IMG/VR virus record: IMGVR_UViG_3300048599_000737
Location: 11,870 to 75,869 of that record
Reading direction: 5' to 3' (one strand)
Source: a virus
Taxonomy: Duplodnaviria > Caudoviricetes
Length of the DNA: 64,000 bases
Shown here piece after piece: positions 3,095 to 20,053 of this stretch (its first letter is position 1; every line of letters starts with the position of its first letter). The notes beneath the pieces are model-generated. The model ran no database searches, was not told where the DNA came from, and saw only the letters and a program-made list of their open reading frames with translations. Position numbers and translations under genes: made by a program.

Positions 3095-3099
3095 GCCAT

Positions 3100-3402: not shown

Positions 3403-3600
3403 CTAATTGCAAAACGCATTAATTTGTATTTGGGGCTTCCCTGGCAGCGCAGCCGTCCGCAACCATGAGTCCTCGTCGAGCGATAAACGCACCGACTCGC
3501 AGGCTACGAAGATGAAAGGATACATGTAAGGCATAATATAGATGCATGGATTCCATGAGTGAGCCTCTCCAAATCCTCGGCATGTTAACCATTTAGCTTT

Positions 3601-6600
3601 ATGAACTCTAAACCATATCGACTACTATTCCTCCTGGCTTTCTTGTTTAGTTTGAGGCCAGTTTGTGCCCAGATGGCGTTTTACTACGACGCCTCAGGCA
3701 ATCCCACCAATTGTGTTTACGTCTCAAACGCCACCTTGACTAGCCTCACGGCGACCAATAATGAAACCATCGTGGCGGGTGACGAATTGTCCCTGGCGGT
3801 CTCAGCGTCGGGGTCCGGCCCCATCAGCTACCAGTGGCAGCTTAACGGCGTCAACATCGTCGGGGCCACCAACGCGACCTATTTCAAATCCAGCGCATGC
3901 ACCAGCGACGCTGGCGTTTATACGGTTGTAGTTACGGGCGCGACCGGCTCGCTGACAAATCAGGCGGGAATGGTGACCATTCTTGCCTCGTCGAACACGC
4001 TATACGCGGTTACCTATGGCTTGAATCGTTTCGTTGCCGTTGGGGCCTCGGGAACCATCGTGGCTTCATCCAATCTGGTCTCCTGGGCGCTCCTAAACTC
4101 AGGCACTACCAATGCCCTCTACGGAGTCTGCTCAGCCAACGCTTCGCTGGTGACCGTCGGCGCTCTCGGAACCGCTCTGACCTCAACGGATGCCACCAAC
4201 TGGACCAGCCGCGCCACCGGCACAACCAACGACCTCAACGCAGTGACCTACGGCAACGGCATCTTCGTTGCCGCCGGCTCGAAAGGTTGCATTTTGACTT
4301 CTCCGAACGCGTGTAGTTGGGCAATTCAAACCTTTGACAGTCCCACACTGACCAGCATCGTTTATACAAACAGCCTCTTTATCGCGACAGGCACCGGAGG
4401 AACGATATGGACCTCCTCCAACGGCACGAACTGGTTCGGCCAGGATTTCGACACCACTGAGACTATCAACGCTGTCGGCTATGGTAATGGCAAGTTTGTC
4501 GCGGCCGGAACGAGCGGACTGATCCTGACCTCGTCTGATGGAAGCAACTGGGTGGAGCAGACTAGCGCCACGGCACAGGATCTCAATTCCCTGTTGCCGT
4601 TTAACGGAGAGTTGTTCGGCATAGGGCCGGTTGGACAAAATCTCATTTCATTGGACGGAGCCAACTGGGGAATCAGCGACTCGGGGACATTTGATGTGCT
4701 ATTTGGCTCAACGGTGGGCAATGGTATTCCGGTCGCAGTCGGAGAGAATGGCACGGTTATCCAGGTTCCCAACAGTCTGGCCGACCATTTCGCCTGGAGT
4801 TACGTTCCATCGCCGCAGCGCACCAACCTGGCATTTTCGGTCACGCTCACCGCCAAGGACGCGGCGAACAATACCATTTCCAACTACAGTGGATCTGTAA
4901 CGTTGTCGACCCTAACAGGACAAGTGACCCTCACCAATTCCATCCTCACCAATGTTGCGCCTGAATATACCAACGCCTCGGCCTACACGGTCGGCTATGC
5001 TTTTACGCCCAATTCAGACCTCCTGGTTACCGCCGTGAAACACTTCGACGTTGCCGACAAGGTTTCTATATGGAAGGAAGATGAAACTCTTCTGGCCAGT
5101 GTGAACGTGACCAACCAGCGAAACGCATGGGTCTCCACCCCGCTATCCGCCCCGCTAACCCTGAAGGCTGGGACGACCTACGTGATCGGCGTGTATAGCA
5201 AAACAAACTGTTTCTATAATCTGGATGGCCCCACATCCTTCGCAGATGGCACAATCGACCAGTCATTCTTAACCGACGAAGACGGCTGTCCGATTTATCC
5301 CGAGAGCATTTATTGGTTCCTGGTCGATATAACGTATATCGTCCAGCAAAGTTCCTCCAACAGCATATCGCCCACCGTGGTGACGTTATCCAGCGGAACA
5401 GCTAACTTCAGCGCCACCGTTCAAAATCCAGGGAATGGAATCACGATGAGCGCAACCGATTCGGATGGACATGAGGGCACCAGCAATCCGTTCAATGTCT
5501 ATGGGGCCAACGATTTGGCGGTGACGCTCACGGCGACACCTAATCCAGTTGGCGTAAACAGCAACTTAACCTACACGGCGGTTGTGATTAACTCGGGTTC
5601 CACCTCTTCCACGGGAGTTTATCTGACCAACGTCATTCCTCCCGCCTCGACTTTTCTCCAGGCGACTACGAGTCAGGGAACCTGCCAGTATGCCAATGGA
5701 GTTGTGGTGTGCAACGTCGGGAATCTGGCCGGCCAGGGAAGCGTGACCAATACAATCATTGTGACTCCGGTCGTATCTGGAGTGATGCTGACCAATACCG
5801 CTATTGCAGTCCGCAACGAAACGGATTCAAACCCGAATAACAACCGGGTATCGCTGGCGACTTACGTCCCACCGACCCTGTCTGTGGGCGACGTTTCAGT
5901 AACCGAAGGCAATGTGGGATTGTCCCAAGCCCACGTGCCTGTGACGTTGTCCGCGCCGAGCGTTCTGGCGGTAAGCTTTACTACCGAAACGTTTGATGGA
6001 ACAAATGCCAATTCCGCCGTTGCTGGTCAGGATTATGTGGCATCGAGCCAGACTTGGGTTTTGACTCCTGGCACTACCAGCGCCTATATCCCCATTTCGA
6101 TTCAAGGGAACACGACCATAGAGGCCGACAAGCAGTTTCGAGTCAAGTTGTCAGCCGCTGCCAACGCCACATTGACCCGCGATCAGGCTACCGTGACAAT
6201 TGTTAATGACGACGGGCTGTCGGGGCAGGTGTACAACCTCGTCTGGTCAAGCCTCTCATCCCCCCAGGTAACCAACCAGCCGTTTTCAGCCACCATAACT
6301 GCTTTGGATGCCAGTGGGGCCACGGCGACCAGCTTCGCTAGCCAGGTCATGCTAAGCATGATTAATCCAGCGAACGCCACAAACACAGTTGTGGGTGCGT
6401 CTTCCCCGACTTCGTCTGGAAACGTGGAACTCCGAACAGTGGGATACCTCTTCTCGCCTACAAACGACCTTTACGTTACAGGCGCCAGGACCTATGGAGG
6501 GACGAAGGTCTCGATATGGACCTCTACCGGCTACCTTATTGCGAGCCAAAGCGTGGCTGGGAGCAATAGCGCCTGGACCGAAGCCTCTTTCGCCACACCA

Positions 6601-7941
6601 GTCCACTTGATGGCAGGTTCAAACTATGTAGTAGGAGCGTTCACAGGAGGAAACGCATATTCCTGGGTGCGTGATGGCAGCAGTTCGTTTGCGGATGGCA
6701 CGATTGTCCAAGGATACTCGGCACAGGGGGACACTTTCCCAGATAACCAGGACAGCGCTCGTTGGTACTTGGTTGACCTGCGCTACGTTCACGCTGGTTC
6801 GATGACGCCATCCACAACCGGCAGTTTTGCCAGCGGGGCCTGGACCGGCAATATAAGCTTGAGGGAAACTGGCACCAACATCCTGCTTATGGCTGATGAT
6901 GGCAATGGCCACCTTGGCTATGCCAATGCGCTCAACGTCTATCAGCCAAACGATCTCGCCTCAAGCATGACCGCTTCACCTTCTAACCCAGTGGTCGGTA
7001 GCAACCTGACGTTTACGACAACGGTCTTGAATCCCGGACCCAACGCCTCAACGGGTGTGTTTCTGACGAACCTACCACCGACTGGAGCTACTTTCGTTTC
7101 GGCCCAGTCGAGCCAGGGAACCTGCACCATCGCTAATGGTATCGTGATCTGCAACTTTGGCACCATCGCCTCGATGGCATCAGTCACCTTGGACGTGGTG
7201 GTTTCTCCCACAGTCGGCGGTCTGCCTCTGACGAATTCGGCAAACGTGGTTCGCAATGAGACCGATCCCAATCCCGGCAATAACAGCGTCACATTGGCGG
7301 TTGTGCCCAATCTTGCTCTGTCGCAGGCGTTCTCCCAGGCCACCAGCTACTTCTGGACTCCCTGGAGAACTGGGGGCGATGCCCTTTGGAGCGTGGAGAC
7401 CAGCGTCACGCATGATGGCGTGCAAGCGGCCCAAAGCGGAGCAATTCTCAACAGCCAGCAATCCTGGATCGAAACGACCGTGCGCGGTCCAGGAAGCCTC
7501 AGCTTCTGGTGGAAATCGTCATCTCAGCTCGGGGGCGATTTCTTGAGTTTTTCCACCAACGGTGGCAATTGCACCAGCATTTCCGGCGACGTGGATTGGC
7601 AGCAAGTTAACTGGTCCATCCTGCCGGGTGTTACGGTTCTCCGCTGGACCTATGCGAAAGACGACAGTATTGCTTCAGGCTCAGACACGGCATGGCTGGA
7701 CCAGGTGAGTTACACAATATCCTCGTTTAACTTGAATGAGCCCTCCTTGACCTCCAGTGGATTTGTGTTTTCCGTGGCTGGCATGACCGGTCAACGACTC
7801 ATCATTCAAGGCTCAACCAATCTCGTCCAATGGGTTTCGCTGAGCACCAACGTCGTAACGGGAGGCGTTGTCAATTTCACCGACATGGACGCCACTAACT
7901 ACCCATATCGTTTCTATCGAGCGGTGTTCGTAAACCAGTAA
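3601..7941 (+). CDS. large secreted/surface protein: Ig-like, propeller-like repeats, 2x DUF11-like, Calx-beta-like, 2x DUF4082-like, Verrucomicrobia-type C-terminal domain
   Basis: Signal peptide (...FSLRPVCA|Q); Ig motif SGSGPISYQWQLNG; repeated L(Y/N)AVTYG..FVA.G..G.I..S; two NDLA..TA.PNP..VGSNLT(Y/F)T modules; LSVGDVSVTEGN; C-terminal IIQGSTNLVQW...FTD..ATNYPYRFYRA. Confidence 0.85.
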   Translation: MNSKPYRLLFLLAFLFSLRPVCAQMAFYYDASGNPTNCVYVSNATLTSLTATNNETIVAGDELSLAVSASGSGPISYQWQLNGVNIVGATNATYFKSSACTSDAGVYTVVVTGATGSLTNQAGMVTILASSNTLYAVTYGLNRFVAVGASGTIVASSNLVSWALLNSGTTNALYGVCSANASLVTVGALGTALTSTDATNWTSRATGTTNDLNAVTYGNGIFVAAGSKGCILTSPNACSWAIQTFDSPTLTSIVYTNSLFIATGTGGTIWTSSNGTNWFGQDFDTTETINAVGYGNGKFVAAGTSGLILTSSDGSNWVEQTSATAQDLNSLLPFNGELFGIGPVGQNLISLDGANWGISDSGTFDVLFGSTVGNGIPVAVGENGTVIQVPNSLADHFAWSYVPSPQRTNLAFSVTLTAKDAANNTISNYSGSVTLSTLTGQVTLTNSILTNVAPEYTNASAYTVGYAFTPNSDLLVTAVKHFDVADKVSIWKEDETLLASVNVTNQRNAWVSTPLSAPLTLKAGTTYVIGVYSKTNCFYNLDGPTSFADGTIDQSFLTDEDGCPIYPESIYWFLVDITYIVQQSSSNSISPTVVTLSSGTANFSATVQNPGNGITMSATDSDGHEGTSNPFNVYGANDLAVTLTATPNPVGVNSNLTYTAVVINSGSTSSTGVYLTNVIPPASTFLQATTSQGTCQYANGVVVCNVGNLAGQGSVTNTIIVTPVVSGVMLTNTAIAVRNETDSNPNNNRVSLATYVPPTLSVGDVSVTEGNVGLSQAHVPVTLSAPSVLAVSFTTETFDGTNANSAVAGQDYVASSQTWVLTPGTTSAYIPISIQGNTTIEADKQFRVKLSAAANATLTRDQATVTIVNDDGLSGQVYNLVWSSLSSPQVTNQPFSATITALDASGATATSFASQVMLSMINPANATNTVVGASSPTSSGNVELRTVGYLFSPTNDLYVTGARTYGGTKVSIWTSTGYLIASQSVAGSNSAWTEASFATPVHLMAGSNYVVGAFTGGNAYSWVRDGSSSFADGTIVQGYSAQGDTFPDNQDSARWYLVDLRYVHAGSMTPSTTGSFASGAWTGNISLRETGTNILLMADDGNGHLGYANALNVYQPNDLASSMTASPSNPVVGSNLTFTTTVLNPGPNASTGVFLTNLPPTGATFVSAQSSQGTCTIANGIVICNFGTIASMASVTLDVVVSPTVGGLPLTNSANVVRNETDPNPGNNSVTLAVVPNLALSQAFSQATSYFWTPWRTGGDALWSVETSVTHDGVQAAQSGAILNSQQSWIETTVRGPGSLSFWWKSSSQLGGDFLSFSTNGGNCTSISGDVDWQQVNWSILPGVTVLRWTYAKDDSIASGSDTAWLDQVSYTISSFNLNEPSLTSSGFVFSVAGMTGQRLIIQGSTNLVQWVSLSTNVVTGGVVNFTDMDATNYPYRFYRAVFVNQ

Positions 7942-7984
7942 CTCATGCTGACCATCTTTGATTAACATCACACCAAAGTAATTT

Positions 7985-8053
7985 TCCGGGCGGTGGCTCG
8001 TTTCCCCAGCGGCCCACCCCATGGGCCACCCTCCTTGGCGACCGCCGCCCGGA
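7985..8053. repeat. 69-nt hairpin-forming direct repeat, copy 1
   Basis: TCCGGGCGGTGG...CCGCCGCCCGGA outer stem; inner stem GGCCCA/TGGGCC; near-identical copy at 8491-8559. Confidence 0.85.
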
Positions 8054-8064
8054 TTCTCCCTCCT

Positions 8065-8421
8065 ATGCCTCTCGACATCAAAGATGGTTTCTCTCCGGTT
8101 TTAAGATGTGACCACTGTAAGGAACTCATCACGGAGGCTTCCAAGGCTCTCGCTATCTGGAGACCGCCACAGCCCATCGAATGCCATCTGGCTCAGCATC
8201 CAGACATCTATTTCCTTCACGAGGAATGCAATCTCACTTTCCAGCAGACCGCATTTACGGATAGCGAGCGAGCCCAGGCAAATTCCGCACCGCTAACCGA
8301 GTTCCTGACGCACTTGCTGGCAAATACCGGTATTGCCTTCCTGGAAGCCGCCATCCCCTCAAAAAGCGAGGAACGGCTTGTCTCCGCGCTATCCCAGGAG
8401 AACATGCCTATTTCACGTTGA
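8065..8421 (+). CDS. hypothetical protein, possible Zn-binding (CDHC, HEEC)
   Basis: ATG at 8065 (MPLDIKDG...) chosen over the track start 7993, which lies inside the repeat; Cys/His motifs. Confidence 0.55.
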   Translation: MPLDIKDGFSPVLRCDHCKELITEASKALAIWRPPQPIECHLAQHPDIYFLHEECNLTFQQTAFTDSERAQANSAPLTEFLTHLLANTGIAFLEAAIPSKSEERLVSALSQENMPISR

Positions 8422-8490
8422 GCGGGAGGGCATTGCACAGCCTCAAAAAAAACCTTGTTCCGCACGCTGAACACAGCTACAAACGTCTTT

Positions 8491-8559
8491 ATCCGGGCGG
8501 TGGATCGTTTCCCCAGCGGGATTCCCCATCCCCACCTCCTTGGCGACTACCGCCCGGAT
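8491..8559. repeat. 69-nt hairpin-forming direct repeat, copy 2
   Basis: ATCCGGGCGGTGG...CTACCGCCCGGAT outer stem; inner stem GGGAT/ATCCC. Confidence 0.85.
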
Positions 8560-8663
8560 ACTTTCGGCAGCTACTCATGGCGACCGCCAAGGGCTCCAAA
8601 GGTTGACTTGTTTTGTAATGGCACTTTTCGCTAATTCCGTGCTATTCCATCCTAAATAATCAA

Positions 8664-9488
8664 ATGAATCCCATAGACCCAAACACTGCAAAAATCCTCA
8701 TCGATACCGGCAAGGAACTCGGCATTGATAAGCTCCTCCCAACGGTTTACGCGGATCTTCTCCAGCCAGCCGTCCGGGAAGTTGGCGACGGTTTGCGCAT
8801 CATCGCTAGAACAGCGAAGGTAGCGTTAGCCCCACTAAAAGCTACTATCTTTGGATATGAGCAGATAGAAGATATCCTCTCGGTAATGGTAACAGCGCGA
8901 CTCGCCAAGAAATCGCCCGCAGATATACAGACTCCCGACCCGGTTGTAGCCGGCCCGCTGTTGATCGGAATGTCCTTTACGGTCCAGGCTCCACATTTAC
9001 GCGAGATGTATGCCAACCTATTGGCGACAGCTATGCACCGTCCATCTTCGGCGAAGGCCCATCCTTCCTTCGTGCAAATCATCCAGCAACTCAGTCCGGC
9101 TGAGGCGCTCATCCTGAAGGAAATTTCCAGAGGGTATAAAAGTGGTGATGTGTTATTCCGAGAGGACGTCAAAAACGTACCGAAGCTCCAGCCGACTAGC
9201 ACGCTTAGCATGGCCACAATGCTTACTAATGTGGAGCCGTCGGCAATTTCCGACGTATGGCAAAGCCTTTGCGAGAGATGCGGTGTCACTGAACCGGTTC
9301 TCGCCCGCGCGTTTTACCGCAACCTCATTCGTCTAGGCATTTTCGCTGAACGCAATGAGGGTGAATCAAAGGGGGGCAATTTGGCCGATTACCTGGAATC
9401 CAGCTTTGCTAGAAGGCTGCAAACCCACGTCGAACTGAGCGAGTTTGGCGACCTATTCCTTGATGTCTGCGTCAGGGAAAGCATTTAA
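8664..9488 (+). CDS. Abi-alpha (DUF4393-like) family protein
   Basis: Characteristic PDPVVAGPLL...LREMYANLLATAM...HPSFVQIIQQLSPAEALILK segment. Confidence 0.8.
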   Translation: MNPIDPNTAKILIDTGKELGIDKLLPTVYADLLQPAVREVGDGLRIIARTAKVALAPLKATIFGYEQIEDILSVMVTARLAKKSPADIQTPDPVVAGPLLIGMSFTVQAPHLREMYANLLATAMHRPSSAKAHPSFVQIIQQLSPAEALILKEISRGYKSGDVLFREDVKNVPKLQPTSTLSMATMLTNVEPSAISDVWQSLCERCGVTEPVLARAFYRNLIRLGIFAERNEGESKGGNLADYLESSFARRLQTHVELSEFGDLFLDVCVRESI

Positions 9489-9517
9489 GTGTCCACCCCA
9501 CCTAACTCAAGAGGATT

Positions 9518-10750
9518 ATGAACCAAATCAGCAACCTCCATCCTCTTCGCTGCTTGCAGCTTAGCCCAATCTTCCGTCGGGATTGTAACAGCTATCGTAC
9601 ACGGGTTTACGAAGCCCAGATTCGTTTCAAGAGAGAGGACGGCGCTGAAATCCTCGCAGGAGCGTTTGAAACCCAGTTGCCGAAATTCGAGGGAATGACA
9701 ATTTGTGATCTCCAGGCTCTCATTGCTCGCAGAGGGCGTAACGATCAGGAACTCTACCGGTTTGTTCATTTCTGGGACGGACCTCGCCAAATTTTCCAGT
9801 TCGACGCTGGCTTGGCCGAAATGCTTTCCCAGACAGATGTATGCGACGTCCCCTGGGACTCTTTGAAGGCACCATATCCTGAGTTCTACCTGCACTTTGG
9901 TTGCGTGCTTGAAAACAGCCTGGAGATTGCCAACCGTCGATATAAGGCCGAAGGCGCTTATATTCGGATTCAGGATGGCCCGAGTTTTATTGATGGTTTC
10001 AAAACCGGTGCCATTCACATATCTATCGCGACTCGTTTGGTTTCGCCAAAGTATGAGGAGGTTTTGGCAGGAATGGAAAAGGGCTCTTCTTTATGCGAAC
10101 CTACGTACAACATCACTATTTCCGGCACCACGGGGGAAACGGTAGCCCAGGCACTGGCTCGTGGCCGGGAAACCAATCTCAGTCTGGTTCGCAAGCTTGA
10201 CCAGCAAGCGCTGGACTCGGCCTTGGAAGTCGCCCAGGCCGAGGAAATCGACCCGCTGGGTCTCAGGCAGGCAGAATGCCTCCATATGGAGGAGCAAAAG
10301 TACCTTCGCGGTGAACCCATCACAACCGAAGCTGTGGGGCTGGTTTTTAACTGCATTGCATATTTGACAATGTGCCCACCCGAAGGTGAGCCCGAGTATC
10401 CGTCAGGAGCTCCCAAGAGCCTTATCGACCGCATTAAGAAAGCGCCAACCCCAAAGAAAAAGCGAATCCTCACCAATAACCTGGACCAACTCGGATTTAC
10501 TAAGGTGCGTTTTGTTCGCGATCCTTCTCCTCGGGAAACAACGGCGTCAACGGGAAAAACAGTTCGCACGCATTGGCGACGCGGCCACTGGCGTTCGCAA
10601 CCCTGTGGCACCGGGTTGCTCAAACGGGTTCTTGTTTGGATTCGGCCATGCGTTGTTAATGCGGATAGAGAGCAACCCGGCACACAACTTCCCGGTCACC
10701 TCTATCAGGTTGATAAAGCCACTACGGATGTCAACCAGACTCCGAGTTAG
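9518..10750 (+). CDS. hypothetical protein with C-terminal HWRRGHWR motif typical of phage/island proteins
   Basis: 410-aa ORF 29 nt downstream of Abi-alpha; ends with VRTHWRRGHWRSQPCG...VWIRPCVVN. Confidence 0.75.
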   Translation: MNQISNLHPLRCLQLSPIFRRDCNSYRTRVYEAQIRFKREDGAEILAGAFETQLPKFEGMTICDLQALIARRGRNDQELYRFVHFWDGPRQIFQFDAGLAEMLSQTDVCDVPWDSLKAPYPEFYLHFGCVLENSLEIANRRYKAEGAYIRIQDGPSFIDGFKTGAIHISIATRLVSPKYEEVLAGMEKGSSLCEPTYNITISGTTGETVAQALARGRETNLSLVRKLDQQALDSALEVAQAEEIDPLGLRQAECLHMEEQKYLRGEPITTEAVGLVFNCIAYLTMCPPEGEPEYPSGAPKSLIDRIKKAPTPKKKRILTNNLDQLGFTKVRFVRDPSPRETTASTGKTVRTHWRRGHWRSQPCGTGLLKRVLVWIRPCVVNADREQPGTQLPGHLYQVDKATTDVNQTPS

Positions 10751-10877
10751 GCAGGATACTGCCAGTGATTGCGAGCGTGGCCTTTCTCGATACAGAACCG
10801 TTGAGACTAGCACCCAAGCGGTTAGTCTTGCAGGTGAAAGCCGCTGAACCCGAACTGGCGAGTGGTTCCCCGTTGAC

Positions 10878-10899
10878 GTAACCCTTATATGTGTGTATC
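10878..10899. promoter_or_regulatory. 22-bp palindromic motif, copy 1
   Basis: GTAACCCT-TATATG-TGTGTATC. Confidence 0.55.
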
Positions 10900-11839
10900 T
10901 CTTTTCTATGATTTGCGGGAGCAATCGCATTTTAACGCTTTTCGCCACAAGGACAGATTCCGTCCGTGTCCCCTGCCCCTCGTGCTCACAACACCTGGAG
11001 ATTCCGCATTCCACGCACCAAAGCCCTGACCCCGCGTAATCGGTCAGGTCGGTTAGAGCCGGACGACGCCACAGTAGGCCCTGCGCCAAGCCCGTCCAAA
11101 TCCACGTTCCGAGCAGGTCGATGGGGCACCCGACGCCAACACTACGATGTCCCCGACTGTCAGCGCACCTCCCGCTCCACCACGACCAGGAACCGCCCGC
11201 CAGTCTGCTCCTTGGGTTTACCGCTGACCGTAACCCGCCAACGCAGGCAAAGCAGATTCTGGCGCCCCTAACTATTGGTGGATGTTCCCTGTACACGCCA
11301 GACGCGTCCGACCCAACCTCCTTTTCAGGCTTCTCCTTGCCTTCCTGGCTCTGCCAGACATTGTAGCCAGTCAGAACCAAGCCAGACCAGGTTCCTCCTC
11401 TCCAAACCAGTCCCAAGCTCATCCCAACTCCAAGCCGTCATTACCCGGGATACCCCGCTCCGGCCAGGACGTCACCCCGTGTCCAGAACACCTCGGAAAA
11501 GTGCCTTGGGTTTTCCAGAAAGTTGAGATGGAGGTGGTGTTGTTTACATACGCGCTCCCCGCAGGCCCCCACCCCCACCCCCACCCGCGACTGTTTTTCA
11601 CCCTGCCGGATTGTAACCCTTTGACAAAAGGGTAACTCAGCTTCGCAACCTATTGATTTACAAGGTGTAACGCGGTTCAAAGTCCGCAGTTCCTTGAAAA
11701 TCTACTGGTAAGCGCAGGTCACTCAGCCGGGAATCCGGGCGGACATCGGCGCCAGTCCAGTCGGCGAAGAGCGGGTGTTTTGCCCTTTGAAAATGTGTCG
11801 TCACATATTTAAAAATCGGCAAAAATTTCCCCCTCCCCT

Positions 11840-12330
11840 CGCACGGCCCGCGCCCAGCATAGCGCGGGTGAGCAAGTCGAGTCTGGTGCAATGTCGTGCC
11901 TTCAGACTGCGGTTGCGGCTCATGGGCGATTTATCCCCTTGGCTAGTGCATTCAAGCATTGGCGACCAATTGAGCGGCAGGCGAGACGGTCAAGCTTTGG
12001 GCTTCACCCCGTCCCCGGTTATCGCAAGTGAAAGGTATTGGTATCACCCGATTAAAACAGCCCGTGTCTGCCATGACACGCTAATAAAGAGACGACCAAG
12101 CGTCTCGATCCAACTGTAGGGAATGGCTACAGCAATCAACCCGGGAAAAGTGTCGCGTGGTGAACGTGGCGCTTTGACGGGTACAAAGTTGAACCGCTCG
12201 GGACACTGTTACGCGGTGTCCGGTTGGTATAAGCGGGGGGCTTGGTGGTGCGATGATATTTTGTTACGCAAAATTAGCCTGCCAAGCTCCCCTCTTTTCC
12301 TCTGCTAATGGCCGGGCCATTGGCGGAGTA
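11840..12330 (+). ncRNA. candidate large structured ncRNA or structured leader
   Basis: No convincing ORF. Consecutive stems, several containing G.U pairs that form only on the + strand (e.g. 12147-12175, 12235-12292, 12300-12328). Confidence 0.5.
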
Positions 12331-12367
12331 AAAGACAGTTAACAATCAACATACAGATCGAATTCTT

Positions 12368-12793
12368 ATGACGAGTACAAACCTGATCGTATCCAACACC
12401 AAAACCACGCCGGCCTTGGCGGCCTTGCCAGAAGGGTTTTTAGTGACAACATCCAATAAATCTGGCCGTCGAACGGTGCGACCGATTAGCCGGGTGGAGT
12501 TTAGGAAAGCGCACAAGCTGACCAATGCGGCAGCGAAACGCCAATACGCGCTACACATGCGCCAGTTTACCGTTGCGGCGGCGGCAGACTTCTCAGCCCA
12601 GATAGCGCAAGGGCTGGTGGCGAAGGCTATTTCGGTCAGTTCATCCGGGGTGCGTGGCTACAGCCTGACGGAAGGGGCGCCGGTGGCGGTGGCGGAGCCG
12701 ACTGCGGACCAAGCACGCGAGGTCTATGCGAAGAGCCTGGGGCTGACAGTGGCGGAGTTGGATGCGCTGGTGGGGGTGGGCAAGACGGAATAG
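12368..12793 (+). CDS. hypothetical phage early protein
   Basis: 141-aa ORF preceded by an A/C-rich leader, directly after the structured region. Confidence 0.7.
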   Translation: MTSTNLIVSNTKTTPALAALPEGFLVTTSNKSGRRTVRPISRVEFRKAHKLTNAAAKRQYALHMRQFTVAAAADFSAQIAQGLVAKAISVSSSGVRGYSLTEGAPVAVAEPTADQAREVYAKSLGLTVAELDALVGVGKTE

Positions 12794-12837
12794 CCATTGC
12801 AGCTCAAGGAATATGCACGCCGACAGCTCATGATTAC

Positions 12838-13266
12838 CTACATGTCCTTGAATTCATCAACATTCGCGGGCGACCGAACAACGACATGAATGATGTCTTC
12901 AAACCAGCTTTCAGAGAGTTCAAGGACATCTTCACTGCCGCCCGCAGCCCGCACAGAACTTTGTCCAGGAGCTGGATTAGGAATAAAGCGGATGTCCATT
13001 GGCCAATCAGCCTCATGAACAAGGACACAGCGCACCCACTTGTAAAGTATCTCCTCAATTGAACGCATCTCACCCCGATAGTAAATTAACAGAGGATAGG
13101 GCCGAATGCGTTTTGCGAGTGCCTTGAAAGCCTCACCATCCTTCGCTGTGGGTTGCTCCTTACGAGCCGTTGCCGCAACTGCAACAACGGCGAGCAACAT
13201 GGCGCTTTCTCGCCGCCCATCCTTCCAAAGAAACTTAGCGTCTTCAATGTACCTACGGATGCTCAT
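12838..13266 (-). CDS. putative HEPN-like protein
   Basis: RxxxxH motif (KWVRCVLVHEAD) in a helical 142-aa protein. Confidence 0.55.
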   Translation of the reverse strand: MSIRRYIEDAKFLWKDGRRESAMLLAVVAVAATARKEQPTAKDGEAFKALAKRIRPYPLLIYYRGEMRSIEEILYKWVRCVLVHEADWPMDIRFIPNPAPGQSSVRAAGGSEDVLELSESWFEDIIHVVVRSPANVDEFKDM

Positions 13267-13327
13267 GGGGAATTAAGTCGCCCGGCGGCGCTGTTGGCCA
13301 CGACCTTCATAGTTTCTCATTCGACAA

Positions 13328-13513
13328 TCATCTACCGAGTCTCGGTCCCAGCGTTCGACCGAACGCCCCAACTAATCTTGTCTCCCAGCCGCCGTTACCA
13401 TAGTCGAAAGCGTACCTGGCTATACGCTCCAAGTCCTGGTCCGAGAGGGATAACTCTCCTGTCGTCCTGTTAATGTTTCTCTGGAGCCTTACAGTGGCAG
13501 TGGGCCATCTCAT
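13328..13513 (-). CDS. small hypothetical protein (61 aa)
   Basis: ATGA overlap with the upstream gene's stop; conserved-looking RYAFDYGNGGWE segment. Confidence 0.6.
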   Translation of the reverse strand: MRWPTATVRLQRNINRTTGELSLSDQDLERIARYAFDYGNGGWETRLVGAFGRTLGPRLGR

Positions 13514-14916
13514 TTGAAGAGTCTCTTCGTAGTGTCGGAAATCCAGTTCTTCATTCCTCGGCAGTCACTGCCAGTTTTAGCCATCGCAAAGGTGTATCGT
13601 TCATCGCCTCGAAAGATCAACTTCAGGTGTTTTCCGTCATCAGTGATGTCAAACCCCACATCCTCAAGCTGTCGCTTCTGTTGTTTGCCAAGATTCTGAC
13701 AATTCTGAAGGGCTTCTCGAATGCAATTCTCTATTCTCTCGCCTTCCCCCCTTACGGGGTTTTTCTTAATCAAAGACTGCAACACCTCCGAGACCCGACC
13801 GTCCACCTGAACCCTTCGTTTAGCCTCCTGTAAAGCACGAATGACGATATCTCGCTGCTCACCGCCAAACAGGTCTTGCTCGCTTCCAGGTAAGAGCAGG
13901 CCATCCTGCGAAATCCTCTCGTCACGAACTCGACGCGCGAGTTCGCATTTAAGACGCCCAATTTCACGCTCAGCTTCATCAAGTTGCTTCTTGGTAGCAC
14001 GCATCTCGTTATCGAAAGCTGATGTGTATTCATCAATTCCGGCTTGCCCCGCCAACTTCAGCTTCGCGATCCTCTTTTGAAAGATCAGTCCTCGTAAATA
14101 ATCCCAGGTGCAATGATAGTCTGGACGCCTACCAGCCAGCGCTTGCCTTACCTGATCAGCCACTTCACTTGCGAAGCGAACGGGTGTTGCAAATGCAAAG
14201 GGAGAGATTCGCGTAATCCTCCCGCTTCCTCTCGGCCAACAGATCGCAACAGCCCCCTCGTATGGATTGAGCTTCCCAACTCGTTTAGCAAGTATGAAAG
14301 AGAACCGGCGTGATGGCTCGACGACAACGTGAGCCATACCGGCAGACCACTTCGCAAGATCCTCCGCATTGAAATAAGGCTGATTAGTCCAAGTGGCACT
14401 GGCGTAAATCACCGGCAAGCAGAGTTCCAACTCTCCTCGGAGGAGTCGACATGCAACATCGACCTCAGACTCCTGAAGCGTTATCGGCGAATCTGACACT
14501 TCGAGCACGCCATCCAAATCACCACCGAATTCATCAAGGAGCAGTTTTACAATATACGGCTTTTTGGGCTTTGGAAGTCGCATTCCCGTCTCCGCAGTCT
14601 GGCAATGCAGGTGGATACCTATCAGGAAGCGCTGACTGCGGCTCCATCCGCAGATCTCAGTTGCCCAATCCCGCCTTTCGGCGTCTCGCCATTGGTGCCG
14701 GAACCCAACGTAAATGCCATCCTCCATCTTAATCTTAGCGATCTCAACTTGGTGCGATTCTTTGGACGCGCTAACAATATCATCTTCTTTTATGTCGGGA
14801 ATCACGGCCAAGGAACCTGCGTGAGGCGAACCAACAAGCCATTTTCGACAGAGACCTAGGAGATCATCGCCAGAGTAACTCGGAATAACGGGAAACTGGG
14901 TACTCCATATCAGCAT
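13510..14916 (-). CDS. hypothetical island protein with coiled coil and possible C-terminal HicA-like domain
   Basis: 468 aa; central LPVIYAS...MAHVVVEP...YEGAVAICWP; coiled coil; C-terminal GFDITDDGKHLKLIF...AKTGSDCRGMKN. Confidence 0.7.
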   Translation of the reverse strand: MLIWSTQFPVIPSYSGDDLLGLCRKWLVGSPHAGSLAVIPDIKEDDIVSASKESHQVEIAKIKMEDGIYVGFRHQWRDAERRDWATEICGWSRSQRFLIGIHLHCQTAETGMRLPKPKKPYIVKLLLDEFGGDLDGVLEVSDSPITLQESEVDVACRLLRGELELCLPVIYASATWTNQPYFNAEDLAKWSAGMAHVVVEPSRRFSFILAKRVGKLNPYEGAVAICWPRGSGRITRISPFAFATPVRFASEVADQVRQALAGRRPDYHCTWDYLRGLIFQKRIAKLKLAGQAGIDEYTSAFDNEMRATKKQLDEAEREIGRLKCELARRVRDERISQDGLLLPGSEQDLFGGEQRDIVIRALQEAKRRVQVDGRVSEVLQSLIKKNPVRGEGERIENCIREALQNCQNLGKQQKRQLEDVGFDITDDGKHLKLIFRGDERYTFAMAKTGSDCRGMKNWISDTTKRLFK

Positions 14917-15103
14917 AATACAAAGGTTCTATTTGAGGACTAACGCTAGAACTCGCTCACGCCACACCCCCCAGCACCCTATGCGAACTAGCAACGTCAT
15001 CGTAACATCGGGCGCAACGAGCCCCCCAAGACGGACAAAGAACTACTTCGACCCGTTTCCTCTTCATGCAGGACAATTAGCATTCGCTTGCTGTCTTGGC
15101 TAC

Positions 15104-15139
15104 AAGAATTTTCCAAAGAATTTTCCAAAGAGTTTTCCC
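15104..15139. repeat. 12-bp tandem repeat x3
   Basis: AAGAATTTTCCA AAGAATTTTCCA AAGAGTTTTCCC. Confidence 0.85.
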
Positions 15140-15164
15140 AACATGGCACTGTTAAAGCCTATCG

Positions 15165-15521
15165 CTACGCCAGCCTTGTTGGCCTATTTGACTGCAATTC
15201 AACTTCAGCCGCCAACTGAGCTTCCGCGAACTCCACCGCCGTCCGGGGCGAAATGACCGGGGGCTTCTGCACCACCGCAAAGAGCCGCTCCGGAGCGCCG
15301 GGATTACCTTTCGCAGACGACCAAGCGTAGCACCACCTTGGACTAACGTCCCCCACAAGCTCAAACACCTCGACAATGCCGGTCCACTTCGGCTTGCCAT
15401 TGAGACTCTCCACAGCCGAGGACTCGCGGTGTCTCGCCAGATGCCCATGCAAATCCAAGATGACATCCCGAAGCCGAGCAATATACTGCGGGTCCGCCAT
15501 AAGTTCCTCCTGGTTAAGCAT
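15165..15521 (-). CDS. conserved-looking hypothetical protein
   Basis: 118 aa; WTGIVEVFEL...CYAWS...VVQKPPVISPRTAV; start overlaps the upstream stop. Confidence 0.65.
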   Translation of the reverse strand: MLNQEELMADPQYIARLRDVILDLHGHLARHRESSAVESLNGKPKWTGIVEVFELVGDVSPRWCYAWSSAKGNPGAPERLFAVVQKPPVISPRTAVEFAEAQLAAEVELQSNRPTRLA

Positions 15522-15802
15522 TAAGCGTTAGGTAAAAGCTGAACCAAACAGTCGTTATACAAGTGCTGGCGAATCGCCCGACAATACTCGCAGAGCCGCG
15601 CCGTCGCGCCGGTATCCTCCGTGAAGCTTCGGTTCATCACCTTGTAATCGGTGGCAGGCGCCTCGCCGCAAATCGAGCAAACATCCGTCCGCCCCGTCAG
15701 CTTCAGAATCTGTCTGGTCGCAATGGCGCGGTCCTGGTAGCACACCGCCAGGGCACTGAACCATTCCTGGCTGTGAGGGATGAGATAGTTCATGTCCTGC
15801 AA
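15521..15802 (-). CDS. hypothetical protein with two CxxC motifs
   Basis: CSIC and CEYC; in an operon with its neighbours. Confidence 0.6.
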   Translation of the reverse strand: MQDMNYLIPHSQEWFSALAVCYQDRAIATRQILKLTGRTDVCSICGEAPATDYKVMNRSFTEDTGATARLCEYCRAIRQHLYNDCLVQLLPNA

Positions 15803-15828
15803 ACTCTAGCAAGAATCCACAAAGGCAC

Positions 15829-16203
15829 TCAACGAGTAACTTTCGCCACCGCTTGACGCAAATCTTCCAGCAGGAATGGCTTGCAAATCATGGCATCCAC
15901 CGAACACAACGCCCCCTCCCCCTGCAACTTCTCGGCATAGGCGGTAACCATTATAATCGCCTGCTTGGATGAACGCGCTTTGATTGTCGCTGCCAACGCA
16001 TCCCCTTTCATTCCGGGCATAACATAATCCGTCAGGATCAGGTCGTATTTGCCCTCGTCATACAGCGCCAGGGCTTCCTTGGCGCTGTAGGCAGTGTCCA
16101 CCGAGTGACCATCACCAGCCAATATCATCTTCAGCGCGTCGCACAGAAAGGGCTCATCATCGACCACCAATATGCGATACTGCGGGTTGCTTGGCTGCGT
16201 CAT
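15829..16203 (-). CDS. single-domain response regulator receiver (CheY-like)
   Basis: ILVVDDEP, phospho-Asp in LTDYVMP, VTA and CKP motifs. Confidence 0.92.
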   Translation of the reverse strand: MTQPSNPQYRILVVDDEPFLCDALKMILAGDGHSVDTAYSAKEALALYDEGKYDLILTDYVMPGMKGDALAATIKARSSKQAIIMVTAYAEKLQGEGALCSVDAMICKPFLLEDLRQAVAKVTR

Positions 16204-16230
16204 AGGCCAAATCCAAAGATATAGATTACT

Positions 16231-16659
16231 TTACCCATCGCCGCCTGAATTGCAAAGCTTTTGTGCCTCCGTTGACGCGCAAGCACTCGAGGTCGCCCTC
16301 GCTATCGCCGCCCATACCTCTTCAAGCAAGAATGGTTTGCAGATTATGCCGTCCACCTGGAATAACGAACAGCCGTAGTTCACCATCTCCGCATTGGCTG
16401 TAGTCATCACAATAGCCTGCTTGGGAAAACGAGTCTTGATAATCGCTGCAAGTTCATCACCTCTCATCCCAGGCATCCTAAAGTCGATAAAGATGAGGTT
16501 GTATTTCCCCTCCTCCAACATCGCCAGAGCATCTTTGGCGCTGTGGGCCATCTCAACGACATGGCCATCCGTAGCCAACACTATTTTGAGCGCCTCGCAC
16601 ACGAAGGGCTCATCATCGACTACCAGAATACTACCTAGTGAGCTTGGCGGCTGCGTCAT
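16231..16659 (-). CDS. single-domain response regulator receiver (CheY-like), tandem paralog
   Basis: ILVVDDEP, FIDFRMP, TTA and CKP; highly similar to the neighbouring receiver. Confidence 0.92.
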   Translation of the reverse strand: MTQPPSSLGSILVVDDEPFVCEALKIVLATDGHVVEMAHSAKDALAMLEEGKYNLIFIDFRMPGMRGDELAAIIKTRFPKQAIVMTTANAEMVNYGCSLFQVDGIICKPFLLEEVWAAIARATSSACASTEAQKLCNSGGDG

Positions 16660-16812
16660 AATGTCAACACACTACGCACTCTACTCCCTGAGTCTTCCGA
16701 ATTGCAAAGCTTTTTTACCCTGCCCTCAATGGCCTAGCCGTTGATTCCCTACCAAAGCGGCTGACACCGACGCCAGCCGCCTTGTTAGTGAACCATTCAA
16801 CAAAACCAAGTT

Positions 16813-17082
16813 ATGAGCAGAATCGACAACGACGACCGCAAGATCACCGAACCCACCGAAGGCGATTACAAGGGCAACCCCACCCTGGCCATCCCGCTAG
16901 CCAGCGGCAAACCCTTCACCTTTGGCGTGGAAAAGGCTCACGCCATCCTGCGCCACACCGACGCCATCCAGGAGTTCGCCGCCAAACACCCCAGCCGCAC
17001 CAGCGGCACCGTGGCCGCCATGCTGGCCAGCTTGTCCGATACAGACAAGGAGGCCCTCAAAGCCGCGCTCTCCGCCGTCTAA
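16813..17082 (+). CDS. small hypothetical phage protein
   Basis: 89 aa; EGDYKGNPTL...PFTFGVEKAHAIL; A/C-rich leader. Confidence 0.7.
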   Translation: MSRIDNDDRKITEPTEGDYKGNPTLAIPLASGKPFTFGVEKAHAILRHTDAIQEFAAKHPSRTSGTVAAMLASLSDTDKEALKAALSAV

Positions 17083-17114
17083 TGCTTCCGCGTTGACACA
17101 GTTTAAACCGTATT

Positions 17115-17136
17115 GTTACCCTTATTGCAGTGTTTC
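17115..17136. promoter_or_regulatory. 22-bp palindromic motif, copy 2, overlapping a sigma70-like promoter
   Basis: GTTACCCT-TATTGC-AGTGTTTC; TTGACA at 17093-17098 with 18 nt to TACCCT (TGn-extended -10-like). Confidence 0.7.
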
Positions 17137-17155
17137 TTTTACTAGGAATTGCACC

Positions 17156-18619
17156 ATGGACACCATGACTGTCTCAAAAGAGCAGTGCTCCGAACGCTTC
17201 GCCGCGTTGGTCACGCTCATCAAACATGTGGGCGGCGAGGCCCAGGCCCGCGTCGCTGCCCACCTCCGTGCCATCACAGGCGGCAAGGTCCAAAGCCTCG
17301 CCCTCTACCACGTCTCCAAGGAGTTCAGCGACGAGGCCAAGTTCGAGGAATACGCCAACATCAGCTCTGCCCTGGGGGTCGTCCGCGGCCCGGACGGTAA
17401 GAACACCCTCAGCAAACCCAACTGGAGCAAGCTCCAGGGCAGCCTGGGCAATGGCGCCAAGAAAGCCGAGGCTGATGAACCGGAGCACGTCCAGCGTGCG
17501 GACCCGCTCAGCGCACCTCGCCCCATCCCCGCGACACTGACGCCGGAACCAACCGATGCCTCCATAGAGCTGACTCCGGAGCAGCCGCCCCAACCGGAGC
17601 CTATCTCCCCTGCCAGCCAAGACCTGGCTACCCTGTTGGCCCAAGCGGTCCAGCCGTTCCTAAAAGTTCAGCAGGCCGGACAACTCGACGAAGGCCGGGT
17701 TCGGCTTATCTGCCAGGAACAAATCGGCAGGCTCGACCTGGACGGACGCATCAAGGCGGCGAACCTTAACGGCGCGTTTCCTTTGGACCGGGTGCGAAAG
17801 CTCATTGCTGACGCCCTGTCCAACCACGCCACCCGCATCGAATTAATCACACCCAGCGGTGAGGTCAAAAGCATCGAAGGGCTTGTCCACAAGTCGTTTG
17901 AGACAGTGCTCAAAATGACCCGGTCCCGGGTGGCTTCCGGCCATCCGGTGCCGGTCTGGCTGGATGGCCCGCCCGGCGGTGGCAAGTCCCATCTCATGGA
18001 GCAGGTTGCCCGAGCCCTGGACTTGGAGCCCTACATCTTGGCCATCGGTCCGACCGACACCAAGACGGCAATCGTCGGCAGCGTGGCCACGGGTGAGTTC
18101 AAGCCGGGCATCGCCTACAAACCCTACAAGGAAGGCGGACTCCTGGGCATTGATGAAATCGCCGCCGGCGACCCGGGCGTTCTGGTCAGCCTCAACTCTT
18201 TAGTCGCCAACACCAGCTACCGTTTCCCCAACGGCGAGTATGTGCCAAAGCACAAGGACCTCCACGTCATTGTGGCGGACAACACCCGGGGCCACGGCAG
18301 CGCCAAGGGAATGATTCGCAATCGGCTTGATGCGGCTACGCTGGATCGGTTCGCTTTCCTGAAAGTGGATTACGACGAGCAGCTTGAAGCTGCGCTCTGC
18401 GGCAACGCCGCCTGGGCGACCTACGTCCAGAAGGTGCGTGCCTATATCGCCAGCAACTCTGGCGAATCGGTTTACATCACACCCCGGGCCTGCCTCAACG
18501 GGGCGGCCTTGCTGGCGGGCGGGCTCGCCCCGCAGCTGGTGGCGGACGCGACCGTGTTCAAGTTCTGCTCCCCCGACTTGAAGAACGCCATCATCAGCAG
18601 CATCGGAGGTTACCCGTGA
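17156..18619 (+). CDS. MoxR/CobS-like AAA+ ATPase with long N-terminal region
   Basis: Walker A GPPGGGKS, Walker B IDEI, NTRGHG, LDAATLDRF; start taken at ATG 17156 downstream of the promoter. Confidence 0.85.
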   Translation: MDTMTVSKEQCSERFAALVTLIKHVGGEAQARVAAHLRAITGGKVQSLALYHVSKEFSDEAKFEEYANISSALGVVRGPDGKNTLSKPNWSKLQGSLGNGAKKAEADEPEHVQRADPLSAPRPIPATLTPEPTDASIELTPEQPPQPEPISPASQDLATLLAQAVQPFLKVQQAGQLDEGRVRLICQEQIGRLDLDGRIKAANLNGAFPLDRVRKLIADALSNHATRIELITPSGEVKSIEGLVHKSFETVLKMTRSRVASGHPVPVWLDGPPGGGKSHLMEQVARALDLEPYILAIGPTDTKTAIVGSVATGEFKPGIAYKPYKEGGLLGIDEIAAGDPGVLVSLNSLVANTSYRFPNGEYVPKHKDLHVIVADNTRGHGSAKGMIRNRLDAATLDRFAFLKVDYDEQLEAALCGNAAWATYVQKVRAYIASNSGESVYITPRACLNGAALLAGGLAPQLVADATVFKFCSPDLKNAIISSIGGYP

Positions 18620-19605
18620 GCGCCGCCGTCCATTCCCCGGACCTCATTCATTGGCAAAGCAAGACCAAGAACGGTGGCCGGACCACTATCATCCCCTCCG
18701 CCGCCGCAGCCATCGCCATGGGTAGGGGCTATGTTCAAACCGTTCTGGACAACCTCCAGCGGATCAAGGACGCAGGTTGGGAGAAGGTCCAGTTGGAACT
18801 GACCTATCGGCACAGTGGAAAGGTCAGAAAGAAAACCCTGTCGGTGTCGGCATATGAATGCCGGGAGAAAGGTGCCATTGACAAATACAGCGAAGCCGCT
18901 AGCGAGATTACCGTAGGCGACCCCGCTATCAAGCACAGCATCAGCGAGCTGGCCGCCAAGCTCATGCAAATGGCCCTGGACCTGAATCCCTCCATCAAAT
19001 CGAGCTACTGCGGCTTCGAGCGCTGGGAGGATGGCGACGAGGTTCTGATGGACCTGCTGCGCGAGGGGGATGATCGTCCGTTCCTGCGGCGCAAGCTGGG
19101 CCAGACTGAGCCGCGTTCCGGCAAAGGCGACGGGGCTTATCGCATCATCCTCAACACGGATGTGGCCTGGTGGGGAACTCCCACCATGAACGCCTCGGTC
19201 ATGGGCGCGTTGGTGCTGGTCCTCCAGCAGTATTCCCCGGTGGAGATCTGGATTCAACAGGGCTGGCTGGGCGACAACCCGGACGACGGGGTGAGCCTGT
19301 TCAAGCTGGACTTCAACGGGAACTTCGACCCCACACAACTGGCGTTCTGGTGCGGCTCCAAGCTCAAGGACGTCCCCTTTAGCCAGTTCGTAAACCGGAG
19401 CATCGGCCGGGAATGCTCAAAAACCTCCATCCATCCCGAACTGCCCTGCGACCTGTATCTGCGCGGCGACTGGATGACCTTGCACGGAATCGACAGCAAA
19501 AGCTTCCCGCTCCTTCCACCCGCAGAACAGTTGAAACTGGCCACCCAATGGATTGCGGACACCTGCGCCAACGTCCTCTATGGCGAGGAAGCGGAGACGG
19601 CCTAA
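18616..19605 (+). CDS. CobT-like / degenerate vWA partner of the AAA+ ATPase
   Basis: GTGA overlap with the ATPase; RIILNTDVAWW...ALVLVLQQYSPVEIW resembles a vWA beta-alpha-beta start. Assignment relies largely on adjacency. Confidence 0.55.
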   Translation: MSAAVHSPDLIHWQSKTKNGGRTTIIPSAAAAIAMGRGYVQTVLDNLQRIKDAGWEKVQLELTYRHSGKVRKKTLSVSAYECREKGAIDKYSEAASEITVGDPAIKHSISELAAKLMQMALDLNPSIKSSYCGFERWEDGDEVLMDLLREGDDRPFLRRKLGQTEPRSGKGDGAYRIILNTDVAWWGTPTMNASVMGALVLVLQQYSPVEIWIQQGWLGDNPDDGVSLFKLDFNGNFDPTQLAFWCGSKLKDVPFSQFVNRSIGRECSKTSIHPELPCDLYLRGDWMTLHGIDSKSFPLLPPAEQLKLATQWIADTCANVLYGEEAETA

Positions 19606-19785
19606 CCTTTGGGCGGCAGTGGCACAATAGAAGGCATGACGCACGCCTGTTTACAGGCCCGCACGGCGCCGTTACTACACAGCCGCCCCTCTATCCATTC
19701 AGGTCATCGCCTGCCGGTGGCCTGACTGGAGCGCATCCAACCCGATGCGCCATCACAACAACAACAAAACATCACTCACATATCT

Positions 19786-20052
19786 ATGCCAAAACGCATG
19801 CACAACCTTAACCTCAACCTCTCTCCCGACCTGGAAGCCCAACTGCAATGGGAGGGCAACGAAATCCTGGAACAGGATGAAGAGTTCTGCTCCAGTTACC
19901 GGTCCATCCGGGACCGCTTCACCAGTGGCACCGTCCCTAAACACACGTTCGAGTCCGTGGTTCGCTGGCTGGTGAGCAACTGTTTTCGCCGCGCCAACAT
20001 TCCGCTGGGGCTGGCCCGCTCCTATCAAGCGCTCGTAACCCTGGGAGTCTGA
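19786..20052 (+). CDS. hypothetical phage protein
   Basis: 88-aa ORF after an A/C-rich leader; tight operon. Confidence 0.6.
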   Translation: MPKRMHNLNLNLSPDLEAQLQWEGNEILEQDEEFCSSYRSIRDRFTSGTVPKHTFESVVRWLVSNCFRRANIPLGLARSYQALVTLGV

Positions 20053-20053
20053 C

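Follow-up and report, generated by a model that had tools for sequence, protein, structure and literature searches.

A candidate folded 5' leader with a kink-turn-type hairpin upstream of the first early gene in a temperate phage of Verrucomicrobia

Phages of soil Verrucomicrobia are, to our knowledge, almost unstudied, and we know of nothing reported on how their early genes are controlled. The locus described here raises the question of what a gene-free stretch of about 490 nt, built of one stem after another, represents at the head of the early region of such a phage. The stretch occupies positions 11840-12330 of a 64,000-nt piece of DNA, called the window in the following, which was taken from a record of a provirus on a 301-kb metagenome contig. 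The original prediction, made from the letters alone, had seen in it a large structured RNA, either a noncoding RNA (ncRNA) comparable to the GOLLD and ROOL classes or an antitermination-type leader. As judged from sequence comparisons, it is on balance probable that the region from about 11825 to 12367 forms a highly folded 5' leader of about 0.54 kb, belonging to the gene that opens the early region in a temperate phage of Verrucomicrobia. Most likely this would be a cis-acting leader with one conserved hairpin and not an RNA class of the GOLLD/ROOL kind.

The hairpin array and the strand that folds

The region 11828-12335 is a run of about 11 hairpins, followed by a short spacer. Its main features are these:

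11828-12234, + strand: array of hairpins 1-9, lineage-specific, about 95% identical in three metagenomes and unalignable with related phages
11847-11853/11862-11868, + strand: stem, confirmed
11880-11886/11902-11908, + strand: stem, confirmed
12063-12080, 12089-12106 and 12114-12132, + strand: three perfect 6-bp hairpins with A-rich linkers
12147-12158/12164-12175, + strand: 12-bp hairpin with 3 G.U pairs
12199-12223, + strand: hairpin
12235-12292, + strand: two-tier hairpin (12235-12248/12279-12292), a conserved motif with UCUUUUCC directly after it
12293-12335, + strand: last hairpin (stem 12300-12312/12316-12328), 6+13 bp with triloop CGG
12336-12367, + strand: A-rich spacer, unstructured, leading up to the start codon; the related loci L114, L116 and L109 have comparable A-rich spacers

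All the stems of the original prediction are present, either at the same positions or 1-3 nt away. The outer pairs of the last hairpin draw on the U-tract that follows the two-tier hairpin. One minimum free energy structure contained a long-range helix, 11993-11999/12184-12190, which was rejected in favor of a local hairpin at 11988-12008, because natural variants at 11996-11998 break the helix, while the local hairpin tolerates them. As a separate observation, leader positions 12175-12192 are 83% identical over 18 nt to the start of the following ORF, 12369-12386 (TGACGGGTACAAAGTTGA vs TGACGAGTACAAACCTGA), a likeness that may be due to chance or to a small duplication.

Folded as + strand RNA, 11840-12330 reaches -210.5 kcal/mol with a z of -4.49, and none of 100 dinucleotide shuffles folds as well, whereas the - strand gives a z of just -1.21 in the same test; the stretch thus lies beyond its shuffled controls, as the original prediction required of a structured RNA. 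Within the stretch, 150-nt windows place the signal clearly beyond shuffles only at 12050-12350 (z -3 to -8), and 11850-12050 taken alone is not beyond them. In a scan covering 54 kb of the window, single windows with z < -5 were also found elsewhere, and the four-window run that begins at 12001 on the + strand is second among about 1070 such runs. Other strongly negative runs lie at about 28001-28450 (- strand) and at 51501-51750 and 16601-16850 (both strands), and 51651-51688 is a perfect palindromic hairpin of 13 bp.

The stretch matches no known RNA family and no gene. A cmscan search with Rfam 15 returned no match at the gathering score in the whole window, including GOLLD, ROOL, C4 antisense RNA, riboswitches and ribozymes, and the models of self-cleaving ribozymes (twister, hammerhead) gave none. 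Regarding weaker matches, 11300-12900 searched up to E 10 yielded microRNA and lncRNA noise only (E 0.1-4), and 10700-29500 searched up to E 0.1 yielded nothing. No tRNA or tmRNA gene was found for the stretch, and gene callers placed no gene across 10751-12367. The statement that it holds no credible ORF is borne out by natural variants, which have no third-position bias in the 114-aa and 46-aa frames, and one of which carries a 1-nt insertion within the sole 61-aa frame (positions counted by hand).

The strand of the fold bears on a different reading, in which the stretch is a left-end element at the DNA level, i.e., a recombination arm, a replication or packaging site, or a set of palindromic protein-binding sites, and the stems are not RNA stems. 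We regard this as very unlikely. In its favor, the stretch lies within about 300 nt of the inferred left end of the phage, the motif GTGTC/GACAC occurs in 6 copies in 11795-12221 vs 0.7 expected per bin, also within the palindrome of a promoter-like site, and hairpins 5-7, as perfect palindromes, can fold on either strand. However, when each stem was extended base by base and the opposed non-Watson-Crick positions were tallied, the + strand had 15 G.T against 1 A.C, which is unexpected for decaying DNA palindromes, and no direct repeats or iterons are present. The argument that G.U pairs on the + strand point to RNA therefore holds on a full count.

The same bias is relevant to one further candidate, N4-like DNA hairpin promoters read by an ejected giant RNA polymerase, which was set aside: the 2816-aa protein of the virion region (29441-37891, - strand) has no Pfam or PHROG match, and the G.T bias is on the non-template strand.

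Close relatives of the stretch come from public sequencing runs, where three soil-type metagenomes (rhizosphere, soil, peat) share a few words each with it. Contigs from these metagenomes were compared over 10700-13300, and four short contigs proved 95-96% identical, approximately, to the window, all inside 11828-12250. They carry a compensatory change in hairpin 12089-12106, where 12090 A>G and 12105 T>C turn an A-U pair into G-C, and two changes, 11944 T>C and 11945 A>G, that retain their pairs via wobble. Apical loops or the closing pair hold about 8-10 of the 16 variable sites. The variants break 1 pair, against a mean of 5.7 expected when the substitutions are placed at random (P 0.007, a value that overstates independence, since two of the variants, X1 and X3, share several changes).

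Searches by blastn of phage and plasmid records gave no homologue, and exact-pattern scans of viral, genome and metagenome contigs found nothing; two matches from another metagenome exact-pattern scan were dismissed as chance. The leader DNA was not found in the records of three phages related by their large terminase subunit, in the five closest host genomes or in all 163 genomes of the host family, and 401 genomes of the host order have just chance matches of about 35 nt.

The metagenome variants argue against the view that the region is a fast-evolving spacer without specific function, in which the hairpins are incidental (terminator remnants, insertion scars) and the conserved one is a stabilizer or an RNase III site. 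This view, which we likewise consider highly improbable, gains something from the fact that single structured windows are not rare in the genome. Yet the region is about 95% conserved in close relatives, with changes that avoid breaking pairs.

Left-end module, leaders and first early gene in related phages

Five related loci with DNA were available for comparison: L109, L111, L114 (in genome G284), L116 (in genome G509) and L119. The features of the window that matter for this comparison are listed here:

11510-11710, + strand: conserved left-end module, starting with CCAGAAAGTT at 11516 and holding a C-rich tract at 11563-11588
11613-11636, + strand: palindrome GTAACCCTTT/AAAGGGTAAC of the module, which also contains CGCAACCTATTGA
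11787-11816, + strand: promoter-like site TTGAAA-18-AAAAAT, with the palindrome ATGTGtcgtCACAT in its spacer at 11793-11806
12368-12793, + strand: first early gene, 141 aa (ORF141), from a small family that is conserved; the leader leads into this gene
12838-16659, - strand: opposite-strand block with a 142-aa ORF, a 468-aa HEC-07-like protein and two response regulators, GC 0.52
17156-21071, + strand: continuation of the early operon, with an AAA_5 ATPase, a 329-aa protein and a DUF3846 protein, in the order seen in L109

The module, of about 170-200 nt, is common to four of the five related loci and is 60-65% identical to L109 1934-2080, L111 6-182, L114 4193-4400 and L116 794-1003. Probably it serves for control and marks where the phage backbone begins. 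Homology between the phages starts only about 300 nt upstream of the hairpin stretch, and the genes on the other side of the module differ: an FGE-sulfatase (sulfatase-modifying enzyme) gene in L109, a host-type regulator in L114, and an AcrVA2-like gene with an Abi_alpha/PDC-S47 gene in the window. The DNA with these two window genes has a GC content of 0.52, compared with 0.60 in the phage core and 0.63 in the host flank. Because of these differing genes and GC values, the backbone most likely starts near 11510, which would put the anti-defence island outside the phage. As an observation on the module itself, 11563-11588 reads on the - strand as four G-tracts with single-T separators, which could form a G-quadruplex, and a similar tract is found at the same place in L109, L111, L114 and L116.

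The island beside the prophage has a low GC content (0.52-0.56) and comprises window positions 1-11500 together with the preceding 11.9 kb (L015). Its genes include an RHS toxin with an SHH nuclease tip, a 1446-aa adhesin, and the following two:

8664-9488: Abi_alpha/PDC-S47 gene
9518-10750: gene of the AcrVA2-like protein, for which viral contigs gave only distant C-terminal matches

The provirus call probably extends too far leftward, since homology with the related phages begins only at about 11516. Between the AcrVA2-like gene and the left end of the phage, 10751-11500 consists of some 750 nt of gene-free, C-rich DNA with no fold signal, whose ORFs (291 aa on the - strand, 117 aa on the + strand) have no family match. 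At the right end of the phage, an integrase gene (62822-64000) adjoins a tRNA-Pro(GGG), located 215-291 nt past the right end of the window (L014:9710-9786). An attachment-site repeat of the 3' end of this tRNA was not found in the record, its left side included, the short TTTTCC alone is common to both junction regions, and synteny with host relatives did not locate the prophage junctions.

Turning to the promoter-like site, its predicted start, at about 11823-11828, falls where the block of 95% conservation begins: the first positions covered by the metagenome contigs are 11828 and 11835, and upstream of 11835 one contig no longer follows the window. The scan with the promoter consensus, taken alone, is at chance level, with 2 sites found vs 1.2 expected.

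These data give weight to an alternative in which the stretch is an independent, possibly trans-acting ncRNA of about 475 nt, with its own promoter at 11787-11816, a terminator formed by 12235-12292 plus the U-rich tract, and a separate ORF. A promoter-like site with a palindrome does stand just before the conserved block, the apical loops are far more variable than linkers and stems, in the manner of antisense RNA specificity loops, and the three metagenomes yielded only 11828-12250 and not the ORF. On the other hand, contigs at depth 2-3 cannot show absence, so that missing cover says nothing of a missing ORF; no complementary target of at least 14 nt beyond chance occurs in the 76-kb record; and the related phages keep the ORF and the upstream module, not hairpins 1-9. 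We consider this alternative unlikely, and the preferred reading remains a leader that continues into ORF141.

A word-indexed protein search had matched only ORF141 itself, and the orphan status that this implied was overturned by full HMMER, which found 16 distant relatives, with identity down to 53%, among 1.8 billion representatives. The relatives align (A1) with conserved basic and aromatic positions, and the codon-position GC of 0.60/0.51/0.70 looks coding. The AlphaFold model of ORF141 has a pLDDT of 78; Foldseek returned no significant match in the PDB, the best Z of a wide VIA-align comparison was 4.8, and the family model gave no L7Ae-like or other match. Searches of viral contigs with ORF141, with alignment A1 and with the AAA ATPase found no locus.

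In every relative listed, a gap of at least 254 nt that is free of genes precedes the ORF141-family gene, which is the first to follow it, and in the relatives with DNA this gap measures 0.5-1.6 kb. Small co-directional ORFs directly follow the gene in L109, L111 and L119. Where the contig is long enough to show it, an AAA/AAA_5 ATPase comes after them, as in L109, in L119 and in the contigs of P0005 and P0006, and next DUF7192 in the P0005/P0006 contigs and L109, with DUF3846 in L109. Since this gene order is shared by the related loci, the original prediction was right to place the stretch at the head of the early region of a prophage, as synteny with all five loci agrees. What it missed is that the following ORF belongs with the element. 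In the window, 12838-16659, annotated from PADLOC and Pfam matches, is an inserted block that separates the first early gene from the remaining early operon. For 17-27 kb, a defence island of the Hma type was also considered, and PADLOC gave no support for it.

The early operons of three related phages also contain Twister-P5 ribozymes between their genes, scoring 60-63 bits vs an Rfam gathering score of 37.6, and two hammerhead candidates lie just under threshold:

L111:1279-1339, + strand: Twister-P5, directly after the ORF141-family gene
L119:1751-1807, + strand: Twister-P5
L109:3754-3809, + strand: Twister-P5
L111:4261-4325 and L119:1231-1270: further ribozyme sites listed with the Twister-P5/hammerhead set

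In L111, L119 and L109 the Twister-P5 copies lie outside the leaders. As predicted from these matches, the ribozymes may cut the early transcripts of the phage group; neither Twister-P5 nor hammerhead was found in the early region of the window or in L114. In the prophage of genome G284, a tRNA-Met gene at L114:11432-11508 (- strand) lies roughly 6 kb downstream from the ORF141-family gene, and it could either belong to the phage or stand at the other end of the element.

The leaders themselves have next to nothing in common by BLAST or local alignment, and this is so even for the pair L114 and L116, in which the ORFs reach 72% identity. As they cannot be aligned between related phages, the hairpin array of the window is specific to its lineage, and by this comparison so is most of the 490 nt. 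The comparison also goes against the idea of a large conserved ncRNA class on a par with GOLLD or ROOL, as hairpins 1-9 (about 400-535 nt) share no alignable sequence among related phages. Two properties are common to the leaders, the strand of the better fold and the place of a stable hairpin; local-fold z and the distance from module to ATG are as follows:

Window, 11701-12367: sense (+) -6.1, antisense (-) -3.1; 668 nt from module to ATG
L111: sense -3.2, antisense -1.1; 643 nt
L114: sense -5.8, antisense -2.2; 673 nt
L116: sense -3.4, antisense -1.7; 501 nt
L109: sense -4.1, antisense -3.3; 609 nt
L119: sense -1.5, antisense +0.2

The sense strand folds better than the antisense strand in all six leaders, and in each of them the local hairpin that ranks first or second in stability ends 14-94 nt upstream of the ATG. 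A hairpin ending at most 61 nt from the ATG is found in four of the five relatives with DNA (L111, L114, L109, L119). The common design is therefore a left-end module, then a sense-structured leader of 0.5-0.67 kb, then the ORF141-family gene, and then the early operon. The advantage of the sense strand speaks against a DNA-level element, and so does the way in which stem sequences change completely, while shape and position are kept, which is unlike protein-recognition sites. As for a spacer without function, the complete turnover of the leaders between related phages, with lengths from 500 to 673 nt, would suit it, but the negative sense-strand z in six of six leaders would not.

A two-tier hairpin of kink-turn type

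One hairpin stands out from this turnover. In four of the six phages (window, L111, L114, L116), a two-tier hairpin is located 40-94 nt before the ATG, with a shared layout of a lower stem of 11-16 bp and an upper stem of 6-7 bp closed by a triloop. The 6-nt 5' side of its inner loop reads GAUGAC, GUUGAU and AAUGAU in L111, L114 and L116, respectively, and GAUGAU in the window, while the 3-nt 3' side reads CGA, GGA and GGA in the same three relatives and UA or UUA in the window. The inner-loop sequence is thus kept while the stems change, a further point against an incidental spacer hairpin. L109 and L119 are without the motif: L109 has an analogous large hairpin that does not carry the inner-loop motif, and none was recognized by the model in L119.

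In L111, L114 and L116, the inner loop has a 3-nt bulge followed by GA opposite GA, which is the kink-turn consensus. The window copy, 12235-12292, lies 75 nt before the ATG and is made of a lower stem of 14+2 bp, the inner loop GAUGAU/UA, a 7-bp upper stem and the triloop UAC. It has the stem and the 3-nt bulge of a kink-turn, with the stem ending at C12251-G12277 and the bulge formed by G12252, A12253 and U12254. It lacks the tandem sheared pairs, because G12255 faces A12276 and A12256 faces U12275, where G is required, and there is an extra A12258. On these grounds, we class the window copy as a putative degenerate motif of the kink-turn type.

Covariance models support the relationship. 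Model R1, built from L116 and L111 only, had its best match outside the training set at window 12238-12289 (21.9 bits, E 0.011 in 118 kb), and with filters off it scored the L114 hairpin at 22.9 bits (E 0.0018). Another R1 match, 62348-62388 (- strand), fell to the level of a generic hairpin under the refined model R2, for which 12238-12289 alone is significant in the whole record. Among 151 genomes of the host family, R2 matches two, G284 and G509, which are the same two that have the ORF141-family gene. In a structural alignment of the four sequences (A8), 97% of the cells form pairs, and both partners differ in 15 of the 19 pairs, far exceeding shuffled and slid controls. The four sequences were fitted to the model's own structure, so that any four hairpins of similar shape would score well, and for this reason we weigh the position, the conserved inner loop and the model matches above the pair count. 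The two-tier hairpin is a previously undescribed motif that is not in Rfam, and our search of the literature found nothing relevant. In sum, the evidence is good for the structure, fair for the motif, which is represented by four sequences, and nil for function.

What follows the hairpin bears on the reading as an independent ncRNA. In the window, the U-rich tract UCUUUUCC after 12292 gives the hairpin the look of a terminator, in agreement with an RNA that ends there, but no U-tract follows the equivalent hairpin in L111, L114, L116 and L109. The sole terminator-like feature of the leader is therefore not conserved in related phages, and because of this transcription probably continues past the hairpin into the gene. 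Accordance is greatest with the leader part of the antitermination-type leader that had been offered as a second possibility, as the stretch reads as a 5' leader that continues into a genuine gene, one that is conserved. The position between the control module and this gene, the sense-strand structure, and the missing U-tract in the relatives together lead us to the cis-acting 5' leader.

Under this preferred reading, transcription would run rightward from the left-end control module, and the promoter-like site at 11787-11816 would start the RNA at about 11823-11828. The leader might then act in cis to affect how the early operon is expressed, by way of RNA stability, processing or the start of translation. 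The conserved hairpin, the best candidate for a functional site by its conservation, would be a protein-binding or fold-directing element, and the early protein itself might bind it as a feedback control. The variable hairpins would supply bulk structure or lineage-specific contacts.

A more ambitious version, which we hold to be quite unlikely, sees in the leader not just a passive untranslated stretch but a modular RNA platform at the front of the phage genome: the k-turn hairpin would recruit the ORF141-family protein to form an RNA-protein complex, the apical loops, under diversifying selection, would be specificity determinants, and twisters would release the RNA in the relatives. In this version, the loops could serve, e.g., in superinfection immunity or as decoys for host RNA-targeting defences, and the locus would represent a new kind of phage regulatory or anti-defence RNA.

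The locus defines three things, namely a left-end control module, an unnamed family of small early proteins, and a sense-structured leader with a kink-turn-type hairpin. Should the hairpin turn out to be a protein switch or a bend that directs the fold, a phylum that has been sampled sparsely would gain a new and compact RNA element for regulation in cis; if the leader merely stabilizes the transcript, the finding is an ordinary one. The twister ribozymes of the sister phages, taken together with the leader, suggest that early expression in these phages relies heavily on RNA structure.

Comparison with known RNA systems

Several systems invite comparison. Large RNA classes such as GOLLD and ROOL keep a common multi-stem architecture across distant hosts. 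The stretch resembles them in its length of several hundred nucleotides, its many stems and its phage context. Unlike them, it has no cmscan match even at E 10, it shares one hairpin alone among related phages, and it abuts a gene into which it probably leads.

Antisense control regions that work by kissing loops are known from ColE1 (RNA I/RNA II) and from the c4 RNA of P1/P7. The three short perfect hairpins at 12063-12132 are similar to these regions, with loops of 6-7 nt and the ability to fold on both strands, and the variation among close relatives is concentrated in loops. In contrast to ColE1 and c4, the stretch is not matched by the Rfam C4 model, the rest of the record offers no complementary target, and the trio is not conserved in related phages. 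Promoter- and terminator-like sites on the - strand (12285-12258, 12106-12089 and 12080-12063) are consensus matches not above shuffled expectation.

Kink-turns are found in box C/D RNAs, in the ribosomal Kt-7, and in SAM-I and T-box leaders, where they are protein sites or bends that allow long-range contacts as a helix folds back. The hairpins of L111 (GAU-GA-C/C-GA), L114 (GUU-GA-U/G-GA) and L116 (AAU-GA-U/G-GA) follow the same layout of a regular stem, a 3-nt bulge, tandem G.A/A.G, one non-standard pair and a second stem. The window copy departs from it, with GAU-GA-U/UA, an extra A, and A.U as its second sheared pair, and the analysis found no protein of the k-turn-binding kind.

The closest parallel is with structured leaders of phage early operons, such as the lambda N leader (nutL and an RNase III hairpin), the put RNAs of HK022 and the RNase III sites of T7 early mRNA. 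As in these, a folded RNA is encoded in cis, downstream of the early promoter region and ahead of the gene that comes first in the early set, with hairpins upstream of the start codon, and the region heads a long polycistronic operon. Unlike them, it is much longer, with about 0.54 kb and at least 11 hairpins, and has no Rfam match; unlike lambda and HK022, it shows no two-stem unit recognizable as boxA/boxB-like or put-like. As we read it, the region adds a new case to the structured leaders of phage early operons, one that lies outside all Rfam families.
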